Part shown: positions 4,384 to 46,875 of the stretch, one piece after another
How positions within the stretch are numbered: the stretch's first letter is position 1
Layout of the letters: each line of letters starts with the position of its first letter
Sequence record: MF158042
Length of the DNA: 48,262 bases
Reading direction: 5' to 3' (one strand)
Source: Shigella phage Sd1
The notes under the pieces: generated by a model
Databases searched by the model: none
Seen by the model: the letters and a program-made list of their open reading frames with translations, nothing else
Told to the model about the DNA's origin: nothing
Translations under genes and position numbers: made by a program

Positions 4384-6378
4384 TCAATCCTCCATAGTAA
4401 AAGATTTGTTTGCAATGATATCCTGACCTTTCTGATTTTTTCTGTGAGTCACCCGCAATGGCTCACGAAATTGACTTGCGTTAGTCATAATCATTCTTGC
4501 ATTACGCAGTCTCCCGATTCTAAATGCCTCCGCTTTGTTCTGTATGTGAGTCTGACAAAATGCTTTCCACTTAACAGAGCAAACACGATGGTCACTTTCT
4601 GGAAAAAATGTTTCATATGCAATGAACTTTTGACCATTGTGCGCCATGATTTCATAACGAGCAACTATGCCAGTTTGGTTTTTAGTTAGGCCAATGCTAA
4701 ATCCGTAAACTCTCAACCAATCCCCTTGGCGATACATCTTTCCCGAAAGTTTGGCGTTAGGGTCAATAAGCATTTCACCACAGCATCTACAGTTTTTGGC
4801 AACTATGTCGTTTTTCTCACCGCAGCCTTTCTTTAATATAACCTTTGTCTGCGGGTCTTCAATGTCATCGCAAGTACGAAACTGAAAAAAATGCTCACAC
4901 CTTTTACCGTCGATAACATTATTACAACGACGAGCAGAAGGAGAGTTCTCATAGCTGCAAGCTGGACATATTCTTGGCTCTTCACCACCCTTACGAGAAG
5001 ACTTGAATTTCTGGTCCTGAACCTCCTCTATGATTGGGTCAAAGTATAATTCTGCCATGTCATCAAGAGTGCCTGCGAAGTCCAATACCACATGATCTTC
5101 TTTAACCATACCCATTTCTTTATGCTTCTTCTTGAGTATACGCATACCACGACCAAGAAGCTGAATAAGCAATGTGATGCTGCCAACCTTGCGAAGAATT
5201 ATTGACGTATCCCACGGTGGGACATTTACGCCGGTTGTGAGGCATCCAATCTGGAAAATGAATTTATACTTACCCTCAGATGCGTCGGATAGAATCTCAC
5301 GGCGTTTTTTCTCCCCCGTGGAGTCGGTTACTATGGCCCAGGTTACACCCTTAGGGAGTGCAGCAGCAGCCTCTTCGCAATGACGCTTACCAGAGCAGGT
5401 AACAAGCGCCGCGTTCCTTGTCTCCATGAACTTTGCTGCAAACTGCATAATCTTTTGTGTCATAGACTGACTCTGGTGAATCTTCTCCTCCATTGCGTTC
5501 AGGTCTTTCTTGCTGAAGTCTTTAATTCCATCATCACCATCTGGCGTAAATTCTGTAAGGTCATAACCCAAATCACCAACCTCGCCGTAAACGGTTGGGA
5601 CAACGAAACCCAAGTCAACCAGGTAATTGGTTGGAACCTGCATAACCGTCTTACGCCAAAAACCTCGAATATTAGGATTACTGACCACTATGTGATTATT
5701 ATCACGGTATGGGCTACCAGTAAGGCCAAAGATACGTAGTTCGCGCTTGTATTTCTCACGGCAACGGCGTTTCATCTCACTTATGATTAATGTGTACTGA
5801 GATCGACCTGTACCAGTTAAGCCCGTATACTCACCATCCTTAAAAACCATCTCACCTTTTGCCGTGCTCATTTGCTCAAACGTTTCTTCGTTCTCTTCTG
5901 CCTCGACAATATCCATGTGATCCACCATATGACACTCATCTATGGCTATTACAGCAGGAACGTAGTCACCAAGCCCCTTAAACAATCCGTTGGCTGCTGT
6001 ACCCTCACTAGCAACTATGGTTTGGTAATAAACTGATTTAACGTTAAGTCCGGCGCAATAGACGCTGTTACGGATACCGAAATTACGAAGCTCTTCTGAG
6101 TTCTGGCTAATTATCTCTGACTGGCGAGAAAGAACCATGTAAGGCAAGCCCAATTGCTCCATGCGCTTACCAATCATAGCAAGAATGATTGTCTTACCGG
6201 CAGACACAGAAAGGTCGGCGATAAATGGTGCCTCGTACTTGCCAATAGCCTTACCAATCGCATCAAATGTTACGCACTGAAAATGATAAGGAGTTACCTC
6301 ACCGAATGAGTAGTCCTTCTGAATCTCTTCAATGCGTTTTTTGTCAAAATTAGCAACCAGTTTCTCGATAGGCAACAT
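4384..6378 (-). CDS. ATP-dependent helicase (SF2, DEAD/DEAH-like) with C-terminal Cys-rich zinc-finger region
   Basis: Walker A SAGKT, DECH box (IDECHMV), C-terminal CPACS...C..C clusters. Confidence 0.7.
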   Translation of the reverse strand: MLPIEKLVANFDKKRIEEIQKDYSFGEVTPYHFQCVTFDAIGKAIGKYEAPFIADLSVSAGKTIILAMIGKRMEQLGLPYMVLSRQSEIISQNSEELRNFGIRNSVYCAGLNVKSVYYQTIVASEGTAANGLFKGLGDYVPAVIAIDECHMVDHMDIVEAEENEETFEQMSTAKGEMVFKDGEYTGLTGTGRSQYTLIISEMKRRCREKYKRELRIFGLTGSPYRDNNHIVVSNPNIRGFWRKTVMQVPTNYLVDLGFVVPTVYGEVGDLGYDLTEFTPDGDDGIKDFSKKDLNAMEEKIHQSQSMTQKIMQFAAKFMETRNAALVTCSGKRHCEEAAAALPKGVTWAIVTDSTGEKKRREILSDASEGKYKFIFQIGCLTTGVNVPPWDTSIILRKVGSITLLIQLLGRGMRILKKKHKEMGMVKEDHVVLDFAGTLDDMAELYFDPIIEEVQDQKFKSSRKGGEEPRICPACSYENSPSARRCNNVIDGKRCEHFFQFRTCDDIEDPQTKVILKKGCGEKNDIVAKNCRCCGEMLIDPNAKLSGKMYRQGDWLRVYGFSIGLTKNQTGIVARYEIMAHNGQKFIAYETFFPESDHRVCSVKWKAFCQTHIQNKAEAFRIGRLRNARMIMTNASQFREPLRVTHRKNQKGQDIIANKSFTMED

Positions 6379-6423
6379 ATCTAAATTCCTATAAAAATTG
6401 TCTTGTAGCGTTTAATTGAGTAC

Positions 6424-6466
6424 AATACTACCATCAAATCGGAATGACTTTTAACAAAAAATGCTA
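6424..6466 (-). promoter_or_regulatory. Palindrome-type promoter P13 upstream of helicase (variant site taacaaaaaatgcta)
   Basis: Palindrome, about 21 bp, TAGTAT-like -10 on the minus strand; lies in divergent region with the plus-strand gene at 6480. Confidence 0.4.
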
Positions 6467-6479
6467 TTGAGGTGGTGAA

Positions 6480-6965
6480 ATGAATGCAGTTGACAAGCGA
6501 ACCATTAATGGTAACAACGGAACAGTCCGCACTGAGGACAAAAGGCAACGCAAGCGACCTTCAGGTTACTACGTTTTAAAAGATGAAGTAAGGGCCGGAC
6601 TGCGCGCACGGCTAGAGATGGTTCTTGATTTCTTCGGCACAAAGGCAAACATAGCAAAGCAGTTAAAGGTAACCCCACAGGCTGTAGAGGAATGGTTTAA
6701 GCGTGGTATGATTTCTGCGCGTGGGGCTCAACTTTCGCACAACTACTACAAGCGAAATGGAGAAGGTTTTCGAGCCACATTCTGCCGACCGGACCTGCAA
6801 TTCGACGGCAACGGCAAGCCATTAACGCTTCGCTGCAAAAAGCGTCACATGCTGCGCGTCGTAACCGAGGCTGAACTAGCCACCAAGCCAGAGTGTCGAT
6901 CATGGCGCAAGATTAAGGAAGAGAATCGTAAAAAGCGAGAGGCAGAGAAAAACAGCACGATTTGA
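6480..6965 (+). CDS. Putative HTH DNA-binding protein
   Basis: Segment IAKQLKVTPQAVEEWFKRGMIS resembles Cro/YdaS-like HTH; gaggtggtg SD. Confidence 0.45.
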   Translation: MNAVDKRTINGNNGTVRTEDKRQRKRPSGYYVLKDEVRAGLRARLEMVLDFFGTKANIAKQLKVTPQAVEEWFKRGMISARGAQLSHNYYKRNGEGFRATFCRPDLQFDGNGKPLTLRCKKRHMLRVVTEAELATKPECRSWRKIKEENRKKREAEKNSTI

Positions 6966-7020
6966 TAAACAATGGCACTGTGCTTTATGTATAGTGCCTT
7001 TATTGTTTATGGAGGTATAC

Positions 7021-7947
7021 ATGAATCATCACGACAAGAATGAAGTAATATCTAAAATGAAAGGGATGTGGGGTGATTTTTACTCGTCACAACTAGGTTG
7101 GACAAGAGAGAATCTAAGTAAGAAACACGGCCCTTGCCCTAGCTGCGGTGGGCGTGATAGGTTTCGCTTCACTGATGAGTTGGGCCAAGAAAAGGGGAAT
7201 GGCTCAGCAATATGTAACCAATGCGGTAATGATAGTGGTGTAGGCTGGGTAATGAAGTGCTCTGGAATGAGTTATAGTGAAACAATAGATACACTTGGTG
7301 ATTGGCTGAATCTCGTTCCAATAGAGGTTATATCAAAAGCAAACAAAAGAGCATCAAGAACTTCACCGTATAAGATGGGGTCGCAAATGGACCATGAAAA
7401 ATGCTGGGAGATAATGCTTAGAACTGAAGTTGTAGAATCAACTCCACTCAGTACATACGAGGGTATCTATAGCGAGTTTGGTTTTGATGTTGGCCGGACA
7501 AAGTCAGGAGAAATAATTCACGCAATACCGTGCTTTATGGCATATGATGATGGCATATCAGAAGAGATGTGCAATGTGATGTTTATTAACGAGGAAGGAG
7601 ATGTTAGCTATGCTGCAAAAGATTATTCACGTCAGTCTGTGGCTGTTATTGGTTCCCTTAAGGATGATGAGTTCGCTTATTTGGTCGATAATTGGATTGA
7701 TGGTGTTCGCGTTCATCTTGCTACTGGGAACCGCTGTGTGCTTGTTTGCCACTCAAGCTACAACATGGAAATGATTGCTTACGCGCTTAGAAACTACAAG
7801 TTACGCATCGCTTGTACTCGCCACGATTTTGATTTACTCGCTGTTGCTGACGACCGCAATCTTGATATTGTAATACCAAATGATGATAACCACTTCAAAT
7901 CAGGAATAAGAAAGCGAATATACAAAGCAAGTGAATTGCTAGACTAA
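7021..7947 (+). CDS. Putative DNA primase (zinc-ribbon type)
   Basis: N-terminal CPSCGG...CNQCGN zinc-binding motif; ATG with perfect ggagg SD; sits beside the helicase. Confidence 0.55.
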   Translation: MNHHDKNEVISKMKGMWGDFYSSQLGWTRENLSKKHGPCPSCGGRDRFRFTDELGQEKGNGSAICNQCGNDSGVGWVMKCSGMSYSETIDTLGDWLNLVPIEVISKANKRASRTSPYKMGSQMDHEKCWEIMLRTEVVESTPLSTYEGIYSEFGFDVGRTKSGEIIHAIPCFMAYDDGISEEMCNVMFINEEGDVSYAAKDYSRQSVAVIGSLKDDEFAYLVDNWIDGVRVHLATGNRCVLVCHSSYNMEMIAYALRNYKLRIACTRHDFDLLAVADDRNLDIVIPNDDNHFKSGIRKRIYKASELLD

Positions 7948-7969: not shown

Positions 7970-7995
7970 TACCTGAAAGATGCTACAATCCAACT

Positions 7996-8010
7996 TAGCA
8001 ATTCGTGCTA
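7996..8010. promoter_or_regulatory. Palindrome site S3 (tagcaattcgtgcta) 25 bp upstream of tailspike start
   Basis: Perfect copy of the palindrome but no -10 at the usual plus-strand spacing; possible operator or antisense promoter. Confidence 0.35.
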
Positions 8011-8034
8011 TTTTACAAATGGAGACTTTACACA

Positions 8035-10348: not shown

Positions 10349-10771
10349 TCAGAAAGGGATGTCGTCTTCGAAGTTCTGCTTCTGCTGAGGTTGTTGCCGC
10401 TGCTGTTGCTGTTGTTGGGGCTGTTGTGGTTTTTTCTGTTGTTGCCCACCTTCAACACGCTGACTAAACTCAAGTCTAGGGTTGTTCATGTTAACCGTTA
10501 CGTATGTCTTTCCATCTTTATCGCGAACATCAACCGATAAACTCTCTGCGCTAACGCTAATAACCTTACCTTCTTGAAAGGCCTCATTGTACCAATCTAG
10601 CATTGATTCTTTAGCGAAAAACACAGCGCGGTAGTTGGTGTACTGTGATTGACCATCCTTATCTTTATATCGCTCACTAAAGTCAACTGCAAACATTTTC
10701 CAGTTACCATTGGCGTTTTGACCTTCTTTAGTGAATGGAGCGCGGCGAATCTGACCAGTAATTACGTGCAT
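10349..10771 (-). CDS. ssb: Single-stranded DNA-binding protein
   Basis: OB-fold-length protein with Gln/Pro-rich linker and acidic C-terminal tail ending DDIPF. Confidence 0.75.
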   Translation of the reverse strand: MHVITGQIRRAPFTKEGQNANGNWKMFAVDFSERYKDKDGQSQYTNYRAVFFAKESMLDWYNEAFQEGKVISVSAESLSVDVRDKDGKTYVTVNMNNPRLEFSQRVEGGQQQKKPQQPQQQQQQRQQPQQKQNFEDDIPF

Positions 10772-12731: not shown

Positions 12732-12926
12732 TTACTCCTTAACCTTAATCACCTTAACAACCCCACCCAACTCTTCATCGTTAATACTACCCCATTCCAT
12801 AGCCTCAGCTTTCGTAGCGAATCGCTTAGCATCAGCTTTATGGTCGCAGTAACCTGAACCATCTTCGCAGTAGTAGACCGTGCCGAAAATCGGATTGTTT
12901 CGCTCTTGAATAATGAAGTATGCCAT
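12732..12926 (-). CDS. Hypothetical protein
   Basis: ORF. Confidence 0.4.
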   Translation of the reverse strand: MAYFIIQERNNPIFGTVYYCEDGSGYCDHKADAKRFATKAEAMEWGSINDEELGGVVKVIKVKE

Positions 12927-13054
12927 TTCTCTATCTCTCTTTGTTTGTGTGATTTAACTATGCCATCCGTAGCTAGGTTTATCCAATTGGTTTTGCCTAT
13001 TGTTTAACTGGAAACATTTTTGCCTCCTGTACTGGAAACGTTTTTGTTTACTGA

Positions 13055-13687
13055 TTACTTTTTATCCAACTTAAGCAAGCCGCCATTATCTAAAAGATTA
13101 GAAACCAGCTCATCCTTATCGATTACCTTCTGGCAAAGAATCTCACACTGAGATTGATATGAGTAGACCATCTCAAGAGCATCAAAGAGCCTGCTGGATT
13201 CAGACTTAACTTTATATAGCTCCTCGTGAACCTCCTCACCATTTGGAGCTTTATCAATGTACTTGTAGATAATCTTCTCTAGCTTGTAAACCTCATCCTC
13301 GGCGCGATTACGTGCTGCTAGCTCCTTGTTCGTTTGAAGCTTCTCTTTCAATACCATATCGTAAGATACCATCTTAGCCATGTGCTCTTTGAGTAACTTA
13401 TTCTCCCGCTCAAGGTGAAGCCAGCGATCAATGATTCTAGCAGCAATTTCTTGGCTATAACCAGCCATCAAAATCATCGTTTCCCTGAATTTTAGGTTAT
13501 ACATTGGTAAATCCTTGTTCTGGCTTGATTTGTAGGAGGATACAAATTTGTATTCTCCTCCATCACCAAACTGCCTATTAAGCATATCCCTAACATCCCT
13601 TAGTACTATAAAGTGTTCCTTGCCAGTTAATTCAGCAATCTCAAGGCTACTCATGGTTACGTTTTCATCAATATTCATCAGATTCAT
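13055..13687 (-). CDS. Rha-family phage regulatory protein (start uncertain; 13732 and 13798 are alternatives)
   Basis: N-terminus MNLMNIDENVTMSSLEIAELTGKEHFIVLRDVRDML matches the Rha-type N-terminal pattern. Confidence 0.5.
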   Translation of the reverse strand: MNLMNIDENVTMSSLEIAELTGKEHFIVLRDVRDMLNRQFGDGGEYKFVSSYKSSQNKDLPMYNLKFRETMILMAGYSQEIAARIIDRWLHLERENKLLKEHMAKMVSYDMVLKEKLQTNKELAARNRAEDEVYKLEKIIYKYIDKAPNGEEVHEELYKVKSESSRLFDALEMVYSYQSQCEILCQKVIDKDELVSNLLDNGGLLKLDKK

Positions 13688-13787
13688 ATCTATTCTCTCG
13701 TTACCGCTCCTGAGTTTGAGGAGCGCTTTCATTTGTATCTGCCATTTTTTGGTAGATAGACGCAGCACCATTGCTGCCGATGAGTGC

Positions 13788-13830
13788 ACTATACCCATTC
13801 ATGAAGCATCCGTTTTGATTATTCGTGCTG
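13788..13830 (-). promoter_or_regulatory. Palindrome-type promoter P5 (degenerate site tgattattcgtgctg, 22-bp spacer, TATAGT)
   Basis: Same spacing and -10 as the other copies; left arm degenerate. Confidence 0.45.
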
Positions 13831-14189
13831 TTTTGTATATCGCTGTAAAACGCACCAAAATACGTTTTGCGACTCAGTACGCCGCATGAATGCTGAATGT
13901 AACTCTTGTAACCAATGTATCCACCAATTTTGCACCCTATCTATATCTATATGCATTTCCTCCTTAACAGGAAATCAAACATAGTCTTTTATAAAAACAT
14001 ACCAACATAGCTATAGAGAGTAGTTACAAGATATACATAGTAATATATATAATAATAATAATACTCTAAAACCTTATTATATAAGGATTCTATAGTGTAA
14101 CTAATGCGTATCTGTGCGTAAAAAGCGTATACAATTTTCTGCGGATGAGATTGTATACATCGAGTTACATCGGTTACGCGTATATAAAA

Positions 14190-14233
14190 TAGCACGATTT
14201 GCTAAAGACTACCGCATCAGCCTTTGCTATAGT
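14190..14233 (+). promoter_or_regulatory. Palindrome-type promoter P6 (tagcacgatttgcta, 23-bp spacer, TATAGT)
   Basis: Followed by leader tactccatcgaaacgaaac and ATG at 14274. Confidence 0.55.
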
Positions 14234-14273
14234 TACTCCATCGAAACGAAACATACTTACTAAGGAATACAAA

Positions 14274-14378
14274 ATGACTAACTTAACCACTAACGTAATC
14301 TCTGCAATCTTTGGCGTGGCAGTTACTGGTTTCTTCGTATGGGTTCTGCTGCTGGCTTCAAACTTTAACGGTTTCTAA
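14274..14378 (+). CDS. Small membrane protein (34 aa), not in ORF track
   Basis: MTNLTTNVISAIFGVAVTGFFVWVLLLASNFNGF; single TM helix; directly downstream of promoter P6. Confidence 0.35.
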   Translation: MTNLTTNVISAIFGVAVTGFFVWVLLLASNFNGF

Positions 14379-14388
14379 GGTGAATAAG

Positions 14389-14610
14389 ATGAAAAAACTA
14401 ATCGTTATCGCAGCAATGATGTTAGGTGGGTGCTCTACGATGCCAGAACGCACTTGTACGGCGGTTTATGAGTCAGGTGGAATGAGTTACTCGGTTTATG
14501 TTTTTGGCACGCAGAAGCGCGGTGAGGAGCTTTTACTTAGGGCTGGATATCCATTCTCGTTTCAGTACGTCTCTGAGCGGAATTTTAAAGACCACGATTG
14601 TAGTGGTTGA
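14389..14610 (+). CDS. Lipoprotein (73 aa); possible Cor-like superinfection-exclusion protein
   Basis: Signal peptide with lipobox MMLGGC; aaggtgaataag SD; lies at the end of the tail module; the exclusion role is positional inference only. Confidence 0.5.
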   Translation: MKKLIVIAAMMLGGCSTMPERTCTAVYESGGMSYSVYVFGTQKRGEELLLRAGYPFSFQYVSERNFKDHDCSG

Positions 14611-14613
14611 TAA

Positions 14614-14644
14614 AGAAAAAGCCCCGAAAGGGGCTTATTTAATT
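14614..14644. terminator. Bidirectional rho-independent terminator (gcccc-gaaa-ggggc)
   Basis: GC stem flanked by A-run and T-run between convergent genes. Confidence 0.7.
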
Positions 14645-15203
14645 AAATGTTTTCAAATGGCAACATCACATTGCTGCCATCTATTGATTCTAATTTGCAT
14701 TTAAAATCAGGACCATCCACAATAGCCGTAACATCATCGTGCTCCCAATTCCTTGTACCATCCCAATCATAGTATAACATAGAATGCCAAGGCTCTATTC
14801 TCTTGCGGATATATTCAATGTCAACCCTCGGGAATGGGAATATTTCTCCACCTGGATCGGCGTCAAAGTAACCGTCAATGCAGAAAAATTTTATATTAAA
14901 TTCAGGCTTTAAATCCAAAAACTCAACTAATTCTGCGCCAGTTTTAATTGTTGACTGGTACCTATCTCCATACTTATGACCATCTGGATAAGATTTTGTA
15001 TCGATCACATTTGAAGAAAAGATGTAGTCCTTTATCTCTCTTGCTATTAAGTGATTTCCGAATGGAAGCATTTGCTCATTAGGTAAAACTGTAAAAGCTC
15101 CATCATACCACTCAATGTCAATCATAAATGGACCTTGATATATATGCGTATTATTAGTTACCCAGAACACAAATCTAACTGAGTTTTCCTTTAATTCATT
15201 CAT
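14643..15203 (-). CDS. Hypothetical protein (186 aa) at distal end of tail operon
   Basis: ORF; no recognisable motifs. Confidence 0.45.
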   Translation of the reverse strand: MNELKENSVRFVFWVTNNTHIYQGPFMIDIEWYDGAFTVLPNEQMLPFGNHLIAREIKDYIFSSNVIDTKSYPDGHKYGDRYQSTIKTGAELVEFLDLKPEFNIKFFCIDGYFDADPGGEIFPFPRVDIEYIRKRIEPWHSMLYYDWDGTRNWEHDDVTAIVDGPDFKCKLESIDGSNVMLPFENI

Positions 15204-15213
15204 TTATTTCTCC

Positions 15214-15897
15214 TTAATCGTAGTTTGATGTATTAATTGCCACCGCAGTAACCCCAGTGTTTATTGAACCAGTTTGAGAGCCAGGTACAGTATTGTATCC
15301 AGCCGCCCTTATCCTGGTTCTAGAGCCGTTGTAGTTAGCTGTTGTGTAGAGGTCAATTGTATACCTCTGAGGTATACCTCCAACAATTTGCTCAGATATT
15401 ATTGCCCCTAACCTCCTCGGCGATACCGCCCATGATCCCGACAGTGATGATTCTGTATCTATGTTTATACCGCCTCCAGCTTGCCCTGGAGTTCCAATAG
15501 TTCTTAAATCTGAAAGCACCTTCGTTTCGTTAGTTAGTATTAACTTACCAGCAGCATCCCATATTGCCATACCCCAATCAGGTAATGTTTGCGTGAATAT
15601 CCCGAAAATATATACTGTGGCAGTAAAATTTTCTCCGCTTGAGTTTTGCGCTGTGAAGTAAACATTTCCGGAGTTTGGCCCACTTGTGAATCTGTAAGCA
15701 GCAATTCCCGTACCTGTGTTTGTCTCTGTCGTCTTTGCGAAAACCATGCAAGGTATATCATTTGGAACTGGTATGTAAACTGAACCTGTCATACCACCAC
15801 TACCAGAATGGGTTGTTTTTTTGTATAAAGCAAAAGGTGTTGAGTTTGGGGTTATGAATGGATTTCCATTAACATCAATCATTGCACCATAAGACAT
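15214..15897 (-). CDS. Hypothetical tail-associated protein (start at MSYGAMIDVNGN)
   Basis: Beta-rich Gly/Thr/Ser/Asn composition; N-terminus resembles that of the upstream 101-aa protein; TAATG overlap with it. Confidence 0.4.
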   Translation of the reverse strand: MSYGAMIDVNGNPFITPNSTPFALYKKTTHSGSGGMTGSVYIPVPNDIPCMVFAKTTETNTGTGIAAYRFTSGPNSGNVYFTAQNSSGENFTATVYIFGIFTQTLPDWGMAIWDAAGKLILTNETKVLSDLRTIGTPGQAGGGINIDTESSLSGSWAVSPRRLGAIISEQIVGGIPQRYTIDLYTTANYNGSRTRIRAAGYNTVPGSQTGSINTGVTAVAINTSNYD

Positions 15898-27933: not shown

Positions 27934-28303
27934 AAGTTGCAGCCCTCCGTAGTACTGGCCTGTAGGCGATTACAGTTCCAGTTGGCTTCACTGGTCGAGG
28001 GTCAATTACTGTGTAGGCTTCCTGGTCGATGTAGATGCGGTCACCTTCCGATACAACTGAATCAGCAGTAAAAATTCCGCGACGGTCACCGAATTTGATG
28101 ATGTCACCGTCAATGTCTCGCGCTTTGAATTCACGGATAACACCCCGCACAGTATATGAAGTCCCAGGTGCGCGCACTTCGTAGCCATTCACGATGGAGA
28201 TGGTTGGTTGGGTTGTGGCTTCGAAAACTCCATCACCATCTGACAGGAGATTAATGCCAGCTTTAATTTGCTGTTGCAAAAGTGCGTGATTCATCGGCAG
28301 CAC
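27926..28303 (-). CDS. Putative head-tail joining protein
   Basis: Position between connector-like and tail completion genes. Confidence 0.4.
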   Translation of the reverse strand: MLPMNHALLQQQIKAGINLLSDGDGVFEATTQPTISIVNGYEVRAPGTSYTVRGVIREFKARDIDGDIIKFGDRRGIFTADSVVSEGDRIYIDQEAYTVIDPRPVKPTGTVIAYRPVLRRAATYG

Positions 28304-30736: not shown

Positions 30737-32212
30737 CTATGCGAGAGGTTTGCTTAGGTTTTCCACCTTATAAGCGTAAACGCCTGCCAAAGTATCAGAT
30801 GAGTTCCTTATTCCAACTATTGTAAGCTTGAAGCATTTAGAGTCAGCCGTAGCTCCTGGTGATGTGGTTATGTAATGCTCAGATGTGACTCCAAAAACGC
30901 CTGGCTTGAATACGCTATTCCAAAGAGCGGCCCCAGGAGGCATGCTTGTTACTATCGCTGTGTAGTTTTTCAACTTATCAGCTGCAACTGTAGTGAGTGA
31001 GTCAATCTGGTATGCAGTGTGCCTTATTGAAGCGATATTTGCTGTACCAGTATTACTAACACCAACCCATAAACCCTTGGCTGGAACTGTGGCGTTCTTC
31101 TCTCCGGTAAGGGCGAACCTTATTGTTGTCTCTCCGGGTATATCTATAAAGTCAGTATCCGTCTGATTGATCAACCCCGACCTTACGCCTGAAGCTACGT
31201 TATAAGAGGCTGGACCAGCCACCCCCTGTAAGCCCTGAGGTCCCGTAGGGCCCTGCAATCCACGCTCACCCTGCGGGCCTGCCGGGCCTTGTGGTCCAAC
31301 TGCACCAGCTACACCTTGTAAGCCTTGCGGGCCGGCTGGGCCTTGCTCACCTTGCAGGCCCCTCTCGCCTTGTGGGCCTTGAATACCTTCCGGACCTGTC
31401 GGGCCAGTTGGGCCTGCTGGACCAGCGGAACCCTGTGGGCCTGGGGCACCCTGTGCGGCCAGTAACTCCCAGGAATCGCTAACATCTGGATTTTCTCCGG
31501 TCACGGCGGCGGTAGCAAACCAGCTAGAGTTGTTAAATGTAACGACATCATCTTTAACGTAAGCTGTCGCAGCGTCGTACATCCCGCGGAATGTTAAGCC
31601 TGCCGGACCAACTGGACCCGCATCACCTTTATCACCTTTAGGGCCGGCCGGACCTGCTGCGCCGGTTGCACCGATAGGGCCTTGCGGACCAGACTCGCCA
31701 GTTTCACCTTGAGGACCTTGCGGGCCTACGGGGCCAGCTGGACCAGTGTCGCCTTTGGCACCTGCCGAGCCTGCCGGGCCGGTAGCACCTGTTGGGCCTT
31801 GAGGACCCTGTGGACCAATAGCTCCTGCCGGGCCCGCTGGACCCTGTGGACCAACCGGACCTTGCGGGCCTGCTTCACCTGAGCCTCCTTCTTCATCACT
31901 TACAAAATCACCTTTCGCCAGCGCTGAAAGATAAGCACCATCTTCGAAGTGGGCATTGCCAAACCTGCGCCAGCCCTGGGCTAGATATCTGTTAACCCTG
32001 TTAACTAATCCCTGAATTGTGGTATCGGATGTCACCATGAAGTCTTCAACGTTGTTTGCTGTTCCTTTCGCCATCTTCATGCCAAAGAGGGTGCCGCTCA
32101 GCATCTGCACGTCGCCATATGGCTGGAATCCTGATGAAATCATGATTTTTACGTTTCTGGCTAAGATTTCAGGTGAATTCCCTACTGCCATAGCAATTTC
32201 TGTGTAAGCCAT
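30737..32212 (-). CDS. Collagen-like repeat protein (two Gly-X-Y tracts)
   Basis: Two long uninterrupted G-X-Y runs ([16 protein letters not shown]... and [22 protein letters not shown]...) flanked by globular N- and C-terminal domains; aggag SD. Confidence 0.8.
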
Positions 32213-42622: not shown

Positions 42623-43252
42623 GTTAATACCTCGTTTGGTTTACTTCGTTTCAGTGATTGCTATATTGCCACCTATTTACGTGTCGGTCAATGTATATTT
42701 TAGTATATTTTATCATGGATACGCATTTTTCCTCTCTAGCCCGCACCAGCACGGATTGTAAACCTGCCGTATCCCCTGTATACAGTTTTTTGAGGTTATT
42801 TCCTATATATGCGCCTTTTTATTCCTACAATATCATCCCTTTCTGACAGGTGTCAGAATATATGCGCGGAACATATCAACCATTCCATCCATGACCGGTA
42901 TACACGGTATACATATATATAATAATAATAATAATAATAGAGTAAAAGGTTGATATATATAGATATTATATTGTATATCGAGTGTATATTGGCGTAAAAA
43001 ACGTAGGTTAGTGTTCACTAACTTTTGTGACGACACTGAGTATACGTAGGATACGCGTATATCATTAAATGGCTCAGCAAGAATCAAAATCAACTTGTAT
43101 GGTAGTCCATCCATCTTTCATTCACTCACTCATCAATTCATTGCTCAATTCGCAACAATCAAAAACATCATTGCATCTGAAGCAACATTGCTATATGTGC
43201 AATAATCATGTGAATCATTGCAATAGCTGCAACAAACCATAAATCGAACGAA

Positions 43253-44617: not shown

Positions 44618-44657
44618 CACGAATTGCTAAAGCCCTTCGGGGCTTATGCTGTATATT
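44615..44657 (+). promoter_or_regulatory. Palindrome-type promoter P11 (tagcacgaattgcta, hairpin in 22-bp spacer, TATATT)
   Basis: Site overlaps MTase stop codon; spacer contains agccc-ttcg-gggct hairpin; leader catatcatcgaaacgaaac. Confidence 0.55.
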
Positions 44658-45231: not shown

Positions 45232-45259
45232 TGACACTACCCGCTTCGGCGGGTATATT
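45216..45259 (+). promoter_or_regulatory. Palindrome-type promoter P15 (variant site tagcattttttgtta, hairpin in 23-bp spacer, TATATT)
   Basis: Site overlaps stop codon; spacer contains cccgc-ttcg-gcggg hairpin; leader caatcgataacaacgagagag. Confidence 0.5.
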
Positions 45260-45291: not shown

Positions 45292-46875
45292 ATGTTTGAT
45301 TTTAACGAAGACAAGTTATCAGTAGAACAAGTGATGTCTGTCGCTGCGGCTGAAAATCTACCACCATTGCGAGTCGCAATTAATGCAAATGGCTATCGTC
45401 AGAGTGCATCATTCTGGAAAGCTCCGGTCGAGATTGATTCAACTGGTGATAAATATCCGGTTATCTCACTTGGTAATGATTGTGACGTTGTTGGTAAGCT
45501 ATCAGCCAACATTGCGCGCTCAGTTCAGTTCCCTGAGTCATCCGCTTATATGCATTTTCTTGGCTGCATATCAGCGGCAATGCTTGGTCGATTCACTGTT
45601 GAATACCATGGAACTCAGCAGCCGACATCCCTATACGTCGTAACCAGTCAGCCTCCATCAACTGGTAAGTCAGCCATTAACTCACTCGCACTAGCGCCAA
45701 TGATTGCTGAGACTGAGCGACTTAATGAATTACGCAAGCGTGAGCGTAAGAAGATTATGGCTAAGCTGTCATCTCTGGCAAAAGAGATGAAGCAAGAGAA
45801 GTCACCATCAGAAATGGCTGGATTATTCGAAGAGAAAGAGGAGCTGGAGGAGAAGCTCGAGAAGCTATGCGATATCGTTTTCCCCGTGTCCGATACCACA
45901 CCTGAGGGCCTTGCCAGAATAAACAACCGCCAGGGTAACTTTGCGGTTATCTCGGATGAAGCAACTAGCGTCAACTCACTGCTTGGCATGACCTATGGTG
46001 ATGGCTCAAAGAAAACTAACAGCGAACTGGTACTCAAGGCGTGGGATGCTGGTAACGTATCTATCGCGCGTGCGAATGCTGAGAATAACATGAGTTTCGT
46101 AGCAATGGGGTGTATCTCTGTTATTGCGCAGGATGAGACAATAAACGCCATCATGAATGCCGGCGCGCGCGGTATCGGTGTGTCAGAGCGTTTTCTACTT
46201 GTGCGTGAAAAGTCATTCCTTGGCGAGCGTGTATTCGTCGATGAGAATGGTAACTCAACTTACGAGCCAATTGATGGTGAGCTTAAGGCTAACTACTTCC
46301 GCCTGGTTCACGAAATCATGAATGAGCAAGAAGTAAAGTTGACGGTTAGCAACTCAGCAATGAAGTACCTCAACCGAGCACGCCAGGAGATGGAACCTCA
46401 CCTTGCTGACGGCGGTAAGTATTCACACACAATGCTTAGAGGTGCGCTTGGTAAAATGGATAAACAGGTAATTCGCCTTGCTGCAGTTCTTCACACTATC
46501 AGCAACTGGTTCAGCCATAATGGCGGGAGTCCGCAGAAGTCCAGAGAGATTGAACTGGAAACGATGCAAGAGGCTTTATTGATGTTTGATGAGCTGAGTA
46601 AAACTTATCTATCTTCCGCTAACGCCGCTGGTCATGCAGGTGACAATGCGGAGATGAATAAGCTAATTGATATCCTGATTAAGCAAGGCAGGAATAGTAA
46701 AGGAGTTGTAGGCTTGCGCTCACTCTATGAAGCAGCACGCAAGGTTAAGCCTTTTGAGGCTCAGTCTGGCGTAATGGCTAAGATTAAAGACCACTTACTT
46801 CCGATGCTTGATGAGAAAAACTACACCTGCCTGATTGGTGATAAGGTTTACATTAATCCGCGACTGCTGGGGTGA
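45292..46875 (+). CDS. Walker-A ATPase, possible replication-associated protein
   Basis: P-loop VVTSQPPSTGKS followed by acidic coiled region; largest plus-strand early protein; a DUF3987-type fold is a guess. Confidence 0.4.
   Translation: MFDFNEDKLSVEQVMSVAAAENLPPLRVAINANGYRQSASFWKAPVEIDSTGDKYPVISLGNDCDVVGKLSANIARSVQFPESSAYMHFLGCISAAMLGRFTVEYHGTQQPTSLYVVTSQPPSTGKSAINSLALAPMIAETERLNELRKRERKKIMAKLSSLAKEMKQEKSPSEMAGLFEEKEELEEKLEKLCDIVFPVSDTTPEGLARINNRQGNFAVISDEATSVNSLLGMTYGDGSKKTNSELVLKAWDAGNVSIARANAENNMSFVAMGCISVIAQDETINAIMNAGARGIGVSERFLLVREKSFLGERVFVDENGNSTYEPIDGELKANYFRLVHEIMNEQEVKLTVSNSAMKYLNRARQEMEPHLADGGKYSHTMLRGALGKMDKQVIRLAAVLHTISNWFSHNGGSPQKSREIELETMQEALLMFDELSKTYLSSANAAGHAGDNAEMNKLIDILIKQGRNSKGVVGLRSLYEAARKVKPFEAQSGVMAKIKDHLLPMLDEKNYTCLIGDKVYINPRLLG

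Follow-up and report, generated by a model that had tools for sequence, protein, structure and literature searches.

What function is served by the AT-rich noncoding gap near 14 kb in the genome of Shigella phage Sd1 (MF158042)? This gap, called hub A here, lies between a leftward operon that includes rha and a rightward unit of membrane protein and lipoprotein genes. The original prediction, made from the same 48,262 bp analyzed here in full (the window), regarded it as a replication origin or a dense regulatory region. Hub A is genuine: it is a strongly conserved DNA region of composite build that acts in cis, and it is neither a gene nor a structured RNA. Its center (~13896-14183) is a cassette in which the AT-richest DNA of the genome is flanked by helically phased short repeats (GTTACA, GCGTA, and GTATAC). 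Both edges are outward-facing copies of the 21-nucleotide (nt) direct repeat (DR) of Drexlerviridae, ATAGCACnnnTTGnTAA, and the presence of DR-type promoter modules at these edges is well supported by sequence statistics. The two functions originally proposed were the right pair of candidates, and the choice between them is not settled by sequence alone. Our tentative preference is to read the core cassette as an iteron/AT-rich origin-type site rather than as a purely transcriptional hub.

The window is the genome of a T1-like siphovirus (Drexlerviridae, Rogunavirinae) with a gene order that agrees with that of T1, Rtp, and TLS. Positions 13000-15300 are ~93% identical to the Rogunavirinae phages AHP24, Rogue1, and Jk06, and the nearest hub sequences belong to the Opt-79/Phleasolo group. 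Composition and repeat content set hub A apart from the rest of the genome, together with a second noncoding region near 43 kb (hub B). These hubs hold the two AT-richest 100-bp windows of the 48 kb (~13960-14110 in hub A is 77-80% A+T), ATA runs occur only in them, and the AT-richest 100-bp windows also fall in hubs A and B of T1, Rtp, and TLS, making four genomes in all. The 9-mer ATAATAATA has eight plus-strand copies, found in hubs A and B only, versus 0.4 expected, and five GTTACA words lie within 273 bp, versus 0.19 expected.

The GTTAC(A) sites of hub A, at 13899(-), 13908(-), 14023(+), 14097(-), 14164(+), and 14173(+), are arranged as <- <- -> [AT] <- -> ->, the last two lying in the right array. 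Within each side the arrays are direct repeats and between sides they are inverted, which is the pattern of an initiator site rather than of compact palindromic operators. Among the repeat words of hub A, only TCCGCGGA, GTATAC, and DR are dyads. The left array (13896-13922) is conserved in all Rogunavirinae compared. On the right, the 23-mer TTGTATACATCGAGTTACATCGG (14151-14173) resolves into a 10/9-bp tandem of ACATCG(A)GTT. The GCGTA units are present as three copies of GCGTAA in all genera aligned and recur in hub B and in the hubs of T1 and TLS. Both an AT-rich meltable element and flanking hub-specific repeat arrays (the GTTAC sites and the three GCGTA units), two features of an origin-type site, were found.

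The individual landmarks named in the original prediction, namely, an (ATA)n microsatellite, a ctatat direct repeat (CTATATCTATAT), and the motifs TTGTATACATCGAGTTACATCGG and ACGCGTATATA (14176-14186), were all in place. It had not recognized the DR modules at the edges, the hub B paralogue of the core, or the 23-mer as a 9/10-bp GTTAC-containing tandem. The paralogy between the hubs covers 105 nt (14025-14129 versus 42901-43005) at 71% identity, with a within-window E value of about 6e-10, and Rtp likewise carries both copies of the cassette. Claims that the two motifs recur elsewhere fared less evenly. No second copy of the 23-mer exists in the window, even at <=3 mismatches; it does have a gapped counterpart in hub B (TTGTATATCGAGTGTATAT, 42971-42989) and recurs in inverted form at the left side of hub A. 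The 11-mer ACGCGTATATA has a 1-mismatch copy in hub B at 43053 and another at 15139 (-), and this recurrence is of marginal significance (3 hits versus 0.49 expected, equaled in 2 of 100 shuffles). The proposed recurrence upstream of the tRNAs failed: only the 10-mer ATCGAGTTAC (39684) is common to both places, and ~30 such 10-mer matches are expected by chance.

Conservation of the hub extends well beyond the closest relatives. In total, 220 phage records match the hub A region. Only 58% of the window aligns to Rtp, where 14011-14289 is 80.5% identical, level with the best-conserved genes, and the core is 81-83% nucleotide identical to Rtp, XGG-1, and ECH1. In the multigenus alignment GTATACATCGAGTTACATCGGTTACGYGTA is almost invariant, and 14151-14183 is nearly so over Rogunavirinae, Braunvirinae, and Nouzillyvirus. 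The originally named motifs are therefore conserved in related phages, and the check on conservation attached to the original prediction did not refute it. The length of the microsatellite is equal in nearly all phages compared, which argues for a functional sequence rather than a slippage-prone tract. The T1 and TLS hubs cannot be aligned to the window but are identically built, with AT-richest DNA flanked by phased repeats (CTGTTACAC in T1 and TGTTC(C/A)AC in TLS). In each genome, an unbiased 7-mer test turned up lineage-specific words restricted to hubs A and B (TGTTACA, 6/6 in T1; TGTTCAC plus TGTTCCA, 8/19 in TLS; TCCGCGGA, 3/3 and restricted to the two hubs in Rtp). No match to hub A was found in 5,426 Escherichia coli genomes or in PLSDB plasmids, and pattern scans of IMG/VR returned few new genomes, some chance matches in metagenome-assembled genomes of giant viruses, and one unrelated contig.

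Hub A lies between divergent operons in the window, Rtp, and T1, and not in TLS. There it occupies a 459-bp gap with no plausible open reading frame (ORF) between two co-directional genes, tail fiber J and then recE, so the cassette is kept without divergent transcription. The right-hand array of TLS is separated by ~100 bp from the reported sigma70 promoter P51, which lies outside it, and hub B of TLS is laid out likewise with P01. In Rtp (28260-28300), the annotated N terminus of rtp46 crosses hub repeats, including two GATATACAC and one GGTTACA, and only the C-terminal 64 amino acids (aa) match the window ORF at 12732-12926; the start of rtp46 was probably miscalled.

The edges of hub A are of a different kind from the core. 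The DR itself is already in the literature: aaATAGCACnnnTTGnTAAAA was reported in a reannotation of TLS, where it was noted also for T1, Rtp, and Rogue1, as a sequence with many copies per genome that is intergenic, oriented with genes, and roughly 76 nt before the start codon, and its function was left open, with a stoperator, enhancer, or UP element proposed (PMC11447400). The right edge of hub A shares the sequence, the direction of transcription, the multicopy character, and the placement ahead of a gene, with 85 nt between ATAGCAC and the ATG at 14274. The additions made here are a fixed distance of 21-22 nt from DR to a -10 box and a conserved leader. In a within-window search, 14186-14257 resembled more than a dozen other sites, which align as AAAATAGCACGAaTTGCTAAAg, a variable stretch that can often form a hairpin, TATAnT, tActcCATCGAAACGAAAC, a Shine-Dalgarno (SD) sequence, and ATG. 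A regular expression for DR matched the window 16 times, versus 0.66 in shuffles. At least 14 copies have the orientation of the gene that follows and lie between genes or where genes start, and a TAnnnT hexamer is found exactly 21-22 nt past the terminal TAA in 13 of the 16 window copies and ~14 of 21 T1 copies. The -10 box is preceded by a TGn extension in ~40% of copies, and the exact leader CATCGAAACGAAAC is downstream of three. The left copy at hub A (13835->13815) keeps the A(C/T)AGCAC half and has 3 mismatches in its 3' half; relatives have ATAGCAC at this site.

The DR module spans roughly -54 to -33 and lacks a -35 hexamer at normal spacing. The position 17 bp upstream of the -10 box reads AAGACT or AAAACN, with no TTGACA-like -35, and the true -35 position is not conserved among copies. 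The TTGCTA of DR is 22 bp from the -10 box, so it is too distant to be a -35 element. Fixed DR-to-TAnnnT spacing and the leader argue for promoters in which the -35 contact may be replaced. Similar to activator-dependent, -35-less promoters (class II activation, T4 MotA/AsiA, and lambda CII), the module has a good -10 box, often TGn extended, lacks a -35 hexamer, and carries an upstream element at a fixed distance. It differs in geometry, since the center of DR is at about -44 and the gap between DR and the -10 box is 22 nt, whereas the MotA box is at about -30 with a gap of 11-13 nt and CII straddles -35. A MotA-box reading of DR was rejected on this spacing (21-22 nt rather than about 12), as was a sigma54 reading, because TAGCACG-N2-TTGC is wrongly spaced versus the sigma54 consensus.

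A factor bound to DR at about -44 could thus replace the -35 contact, and the right-edge promoter would drive the transmembrane (TM) peptide/cor unit rightward while the degenerate left copy would drive rha leftward. The best candidate for such a factor is the family-wide Cro/C2-like helix-turn-helix (HTH) protein (6480-6965). DR is a partial dyad (TAGCA-N5-TGCTA), and the promoter gap of the regulator (6379-6479) carries a DR and no hub words, as the equivalent gaps in T1 and TLS also carry a DR. This suggests that the regulator reads DR, leaving the hub repeats for another protein. The same interval is a third divergent gap, between the genes for the RadD-like helicase and the Cro/C2-like regulator. 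A fairly good sigma70 match in it (TTGTCT-N17-TACAAT, 6398-6426, +) overlaps the minus-strand DR (6467->6451), an arrangement that resembles an autoregulatory switch and is repeated in T1 and TLS.

Several other observations concern DR copies away from hub A. The 21-nt spacer between DR and the -10 box is usually a GC-rich hairpin of varying sequence (44632-44650, 45233-45255, and 41856-41830(-) in the window; 1467-1500 in T1) that is directly upstream of the -10 box and terminator-like or holds the -10 box in its loop, so that structure rather than sequence seems to be conserved; the right-edge copy of hub A has no spacer hairpin. A near-perfect minus-strand DR (7993-8014) is at the start of a 762-aa lateral tail fiber-like ORF. 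It has no minus-strand gene to serve, the GTG start at 8005 is doubtful, and the repeat either acts as a dyad for the plus-strand gene or is part of an antisense promoter. Outside the family, Enterobacter phage PF-CE2 (MW629017, 1508-1600) carries a complete module, ~81% identical to window 14176-14259, with DR, a 21-nt spacer, TATAGT, CCATCGAAACGAAAC, and an SD sequence. This module occurs in T4-like Pseudotevenvirus genomes (~178 kb) as one copy per genome, upstream of a 110-aa gene without a homologue in the window, T1, or Rtp, which suggests either that the module was transferred horizontally or that the two phage families share whatever recognizes it.

Which proteins could read the core was addressed by asking what is inherited with it. 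In Nouzillyvirus XGG-1, most proteins are 43-68% identical to those of the window (TerL, 52%; portal, 55%; RadD-like helicase, 50%; primase [6994-7947], 46%; SSB, 58%), the hub A core is 81% nucleotide identical, and exactly two proteins are highly conserved, a DUF3987 helicase (encoded at 45292-46875; 90%) and the Cro/C2-like regulator (85%). Identities of the helicase and regulator were 93% and 93% in Rtp and 82% and 72% in ECH1. The cassette cannot be aligned where these values fall to 73% and 47% (TLS) or 56% and 51% (T1). This co-inheritance narrows the candidate partners of the cassette to these two proteins. Conservation of the loci compared with Rtp, XGG-1, and ECH1 (45292-46875, 6480-6965, 4384-6378, and 10349-10771) was strongly mosaic: the DUF3987 helicase was 82-93% and the regulator 72-93% identical where structural and recombination proteins were 43-77% identical, and the RadD-like helicase, SSB, and VRR-NUC proteins were highly identical in only some of the three phages. 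DUF3987 proteins belong to the SF6/MCM-like replicative helicases and carry a winged helix-turn-helix (wHTH) domain at the C terminus (PMC4889955; PMC11724360).

The origin-type reading assigns the core to a phage-encoded, sequence-specific protein, for which the cassette would be the binding and melting site. Its build, phased direct repeats, then the AT-richest DNA within inverted TAGTTACA, then phased direct repeats in the opposite sense, would allow the winged-helix domain of the helicase to recognize GTTAC-type repeats on both sides, after which the 67-bp AT-rich core could be opened; flanking transcription and the regulator may modulate origin firing. Iteron origins such as those of SaPI, P4 (ori plus crr), SV40, and papillomavirus are similarly AT rich, with opposed sets of short repeats at ~10-bp phasing. 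P4 ori/crr and SPP1 oriL/oriR likewise provide two related sites per genome, and, as in initiator-helicase systems, the proteins of the window phage include an MCM-like helicase that has a wHTH domain. Hub A differs from iteron origins in that its repeats are 6-8 bp long and of several kinds, the cassette does not adjoin the helicase gene, and DnaA, IHF, and GATC sites are lacking. In hub A, no DnaA box, GATC, IHF, or Fis consensus was found; host-type features such as these are not required for an origin fired by a phage initiator.

The strongest rival is that hub A has no replication role and is a purely transcriptional hub analogous to lambda OL/OR. The AT-rich core would then consist of overlapping divergent early sigma70 promoters with UP-like DNA, and GTTACA, GCGTA, and GTATAC would be operators; the protein bound there, the Cro/C2-like regulator (alternatively, Rha or a different HTH protein), would shut off early transcription or switch it to the DR promoters. 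We regard this as a serious minority possibility. Independent annotators predicted promoters in the core, and position weight matrix (PWM) matches are present there: the GenBank record of AHP24 annotates a promoter at the site of 14023-14053, and phiSITE predicted the CEB_EC3a equivalent of 14042-14070. TATAAT-like -10 hexamers are present (TATAAT at 14048-14053 and TATATT at 14047->14042, compared with TATAGT at 14228-14233 and 13793->13788 in the edge modules), and two back-to-back strong promoters would need 100-150 bp of AT-rich DNA. However, the core sigma70 matches are mediocre. They fit the -35 consensus at 3-4 of 6 positions only, the -35 box of the 14042-14070 candidate is not conserved in Braunvirinae, and a strong sigma70 promoter in the core was rejected because the PWM hits are mid-ranking (the best is ~40th genome-wide) with no TTGACA-like -35. 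Weak overlapping sigma70-like promoters within the core may still add divergent early transcription.

The architecture of the repeats bears on the same alternative. Like lambda OL/OR, the hubs are a paralogous noncoding pair with one motif vocabulary, placed at the two main divergent junctions and heading early operons, and the window phage likewise encodes a Cro/C2-like HTH protein, whose conservation parallels that of the cassette (identities of 93% in Rtp and 85% in XGG-1). Just three sigma70-like promoters have been reported in TLS, and they fall at the three hubs. In contrast to the 17-bp palindromic operators of lambda, the units of hub A are direct 6- to 8-mers in arrays phased at 9-10 bp beside a long core of 80% A+T, and no palindromic 14- to 18-bp operators repeated in both hubs were found. 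A distance of 7 kb separates hub A from the regulator gene, and the hub words are all absent from the promoter region of that gene. The TLS copy of hub A is not between divergent genes, has no leftward gene, and has its promoter outside the arrays.

Other results weigh against the origin-type reading. The GC-skew analysis suggested in the original prediction did not support an origin, as the skew merely tracks the orientation of genes and shows no origin-type inflection at 14 kb. The searchable literature holds no replication-start, transcription-start, or transcriptome data for T1-like phages or Drexlerviridae, and no replication origin of a T1-like phage was identified in the literature searched. 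Several GenBank annotators placed promoters within the core, and an OL/OR-type operator pair would account no less naturally for a cassette present twice per genome where operons begin. In co-inheritance with the cassette, the Cro/C2-like regulator equals the helicase. Variability in the C-terminal domain of the helicase does not stand out much from that in the helicase core and so offers no discrimination, and the tie between DR and the Cro/C2-like protein is purely inferred from dyad shape and from the DR that adjoins the regulator gene. Origin and operator readings are compatible with each other and not mutually exclusive. The fuller proposal, that hubs A and B are paired T1-like origins, each with an AT-rich unwinding element between inverted arrays of lineage-specific 6- to 8-bp iterons read by the DUF3987 wHTH domain, while the Cro/C2-like protein acts as a DR-bound activator that replaces the -35 contact at middle promoters, is doubtful as a whole.

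A third possibility, that the cassette is a packaging-related or other DNA transaction site (a pac-like site recognized by terminase, a hot spot of recombination, or a linker where modules join), is quite unlikely. It would be kept because hub B adjoins the physical genome end. Repeat clusters flank a central IHF-like site in hub B and in Rtp-type hub A, an arrangement resembling P1 pac, and the genes beside hub A vary from genus to genus around a retained core. The window hub A has no IHF consensus. The right part of hub B (43067-43250) is a 180-nt noncoding stretch in which CATTGC and TCATTCACTCA repeats abound. In GenBank, the record of Rtp opens at window 43192/43193, at ~130-190 bp from the cassette of hub B, and that of T1 likewise opens within hub B; the SU57 paper locates pac in that untranslated region. 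Probably, 43067-43250 represents the side of the family's genomes that holds pac or the genome end. Hub A, however, is internal, and a second pac there would give extra ends, which are unreported in restriction analyses of T1 and TLS. The Jk06 (DQ121662) and phiJLA23 (KC333879) records open inside hub A. These openings were rejected as physical ends, since phiJLA23 has the hub at both ends and an assembly break at a repeated cassette is the likelier explanation.

Could hub A instead encode a hidden product, either a protein of 45 aa (minus strand, 13819-13956) or a small RNA transcribed from the conserved core? This is highly improbable. The small ORF has a strong SD sequence, matches phrog_30596, and is annotated in some relatives. 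Against coding, variable columns among five relatives number 12, 18, and 13 at codon positions 1, 2, and 3, nonsynonymous changes (9-13) far outnumber synonymous changes (0-5), and three of the five relatives have premature stops (codon 15 in AHP24 and AHS24 and codon 35 in phiKP26). Its first 66 nt are almost invariant at every codon position, which points to a DNA-level element rather than coding, and the small T1 ORF at the equivalent position is unrelated. Other ORFs over the core were dismissed as junk, with the frame lost in Rtp. The original statement that the gap has no convincing ORF was therefore essentially borne out, because the only ORF with a good SD sequence fails the coding test. 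For RNA, folding of 14060-14275 gave a z score of -2.2. The 75-nt hairpin behind this score was rejected, as changes in its left arm between genera are uncompensated on the right arm and its apparent stem depends on the self-complementary word GTATAC. No Rfam covariance model matched 13600-14700 at E <= 1 (the matches in the whole window are two tRNAs only), the core has no terminator inside, and DNA folding of the core was not better than that of shuffles (z = -0.83).

The noncoding gap is larger than the ~360 bp (13830-14190) first described. Such a gap does exist, and its extent depends on where rha starts. The longest rha ORF has 247 aa and starts at 13798, the AHP24 annotation has 209 aa, and the DR-type -10 box (13793->13788) and the leader hairpin (13705-13725) fall within the supposed N terminus of the longer form, which is almost certainly overextended. 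In the long ORF, residue 49 is the first of the Rha Pfam domain, which makes 13687 (or 13678) the probable start of rha and extends the noncoding span to ~13688-14273 (~586 bp). In the AKS96 record, the site homologous to the leader hairpin is annotated as a terminator. The minus-strand genes to the left are rha, exoVIII, erf, and ssb, and coordinates of the remaining features are collected in the table. Elsewhere in the window, 31001-32000 is an isolated GC-rich kilobase (58% G+C versus ~45% elsewhere) within a 491-aa ORF (30737-32212).

Table 1. Features of hub A, its flanks, and its hub B paralogue (window coordinates)
Feature	Position	Strand	Remarks
GC-rich hairpin CGCTCCTCAAACTCAGGAGCG in rha leader	13705-13725	-	Directly upstream of probable rha start 13687
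Degenerate DR-type promoter for rha	13835-13788	-	AAAACAGCACGAATAATCAA (13835->13815), 21 nt, TATAGT (13793->13788)
45-aa ORF, strong SD, without coding selection	13819-13956	-	5' two-thirds is a conserved DNA element
Left repeat array GGATACATTGGTTACAAGAGTTACATT, two GTTACA units 9 bp apart	13896-13922	-	Inverted counterpart of 14153-14178
TATCTA/CTATAT short tandem repeat	13938-13952		CTATATCTATAT at 13941-13952
AT-rich core, ~80% A+T	14021-14103		Between inverted octamers TAGTTACA (14021-14028) and TGTAACTA (14096-14103)
Candidate weak sigma70 promoter GTTACA-N19-TATAAT (or TTACAA-N18-TATAAT)	14023-14053	+	PWM score 9.6-9.7
Candidate moderate sigma70 promoter TTTAGA-N17-TATATT	14042-14070	-	PWM score 10.3; overlaps rightward candidate
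(ATA)5	14049-14063		In Tandem Repeats Finder (TRF) array 14037-14063
Palindrome CCTTATTATATAAGG	14072-14086		In AT-rich core
Three GCGTA(T/A) units	14106, 14116, 14125 (14106-14130)	+	10- and 9-bp spacing
Inverted repeat GTATACAAT/ATTGTATAC around TTTCTGCGGATGAG	14127-14158		TCCGCGGA palindrome in most relatives
Right repeat array including 23-mer	14151-14183	+	ACATCGAGTT-ACATCGGTT-AC tandem of 10/9-bp units, then ACGCGTAT; most invariant block of the hub
DR-type promoter module, right edge	14186-14273	+	Fits published DR consensus
DR AAAATAGCACGATTTGCTAAAG	14186-14207	+	Perfect member of DR consensus aaATAGCACnnnTTGnTAAAA
TGn-extended -10 TATAGT	14228-14233	+	Right-edge module
Conserved leader CATCGAAACGAAAC	14239-14252	+	Right-edge module
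SD TAAGGA	14261-14266	+	Right-edge module
34-aa single-TM peptide gene	14274-14378	+	First gene of rightward unit; kept in Rtp and others
cor, superinfection exclusion lipoprotein gene	14389-14610	+	phrog_1119, E = 5e-28
Bidirectional intrinsic terminator	14619-14636		Ends rightward unit, facing convergent late operon
Hub B paralogue of core cassette	42899-43066	+	GTATACA x2, (ATA)7, IHF-like TATCAACCTTTTA, GGCGTAA, ACGCGTATATC

T1-like phages are classic phages that also cause trouble in industry. What was an AT-rich gap can now be described as two predicted DR-type promoters, a duplicated cassette conserved across the family, and two candidate binding proteins. Should the origin-type reading fail, hub A would be an ordinary, though unusually conserved, phage control region. 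If it is true, the cassette would exemplify how a DUF3987/MCM-like phage helicase recognizes an origin, and if the proposal of paired origins with a DR-bound activator also proved correct, it would provide phage T1, a member of the original T series, with its first mapped origin and its first promoter logic.

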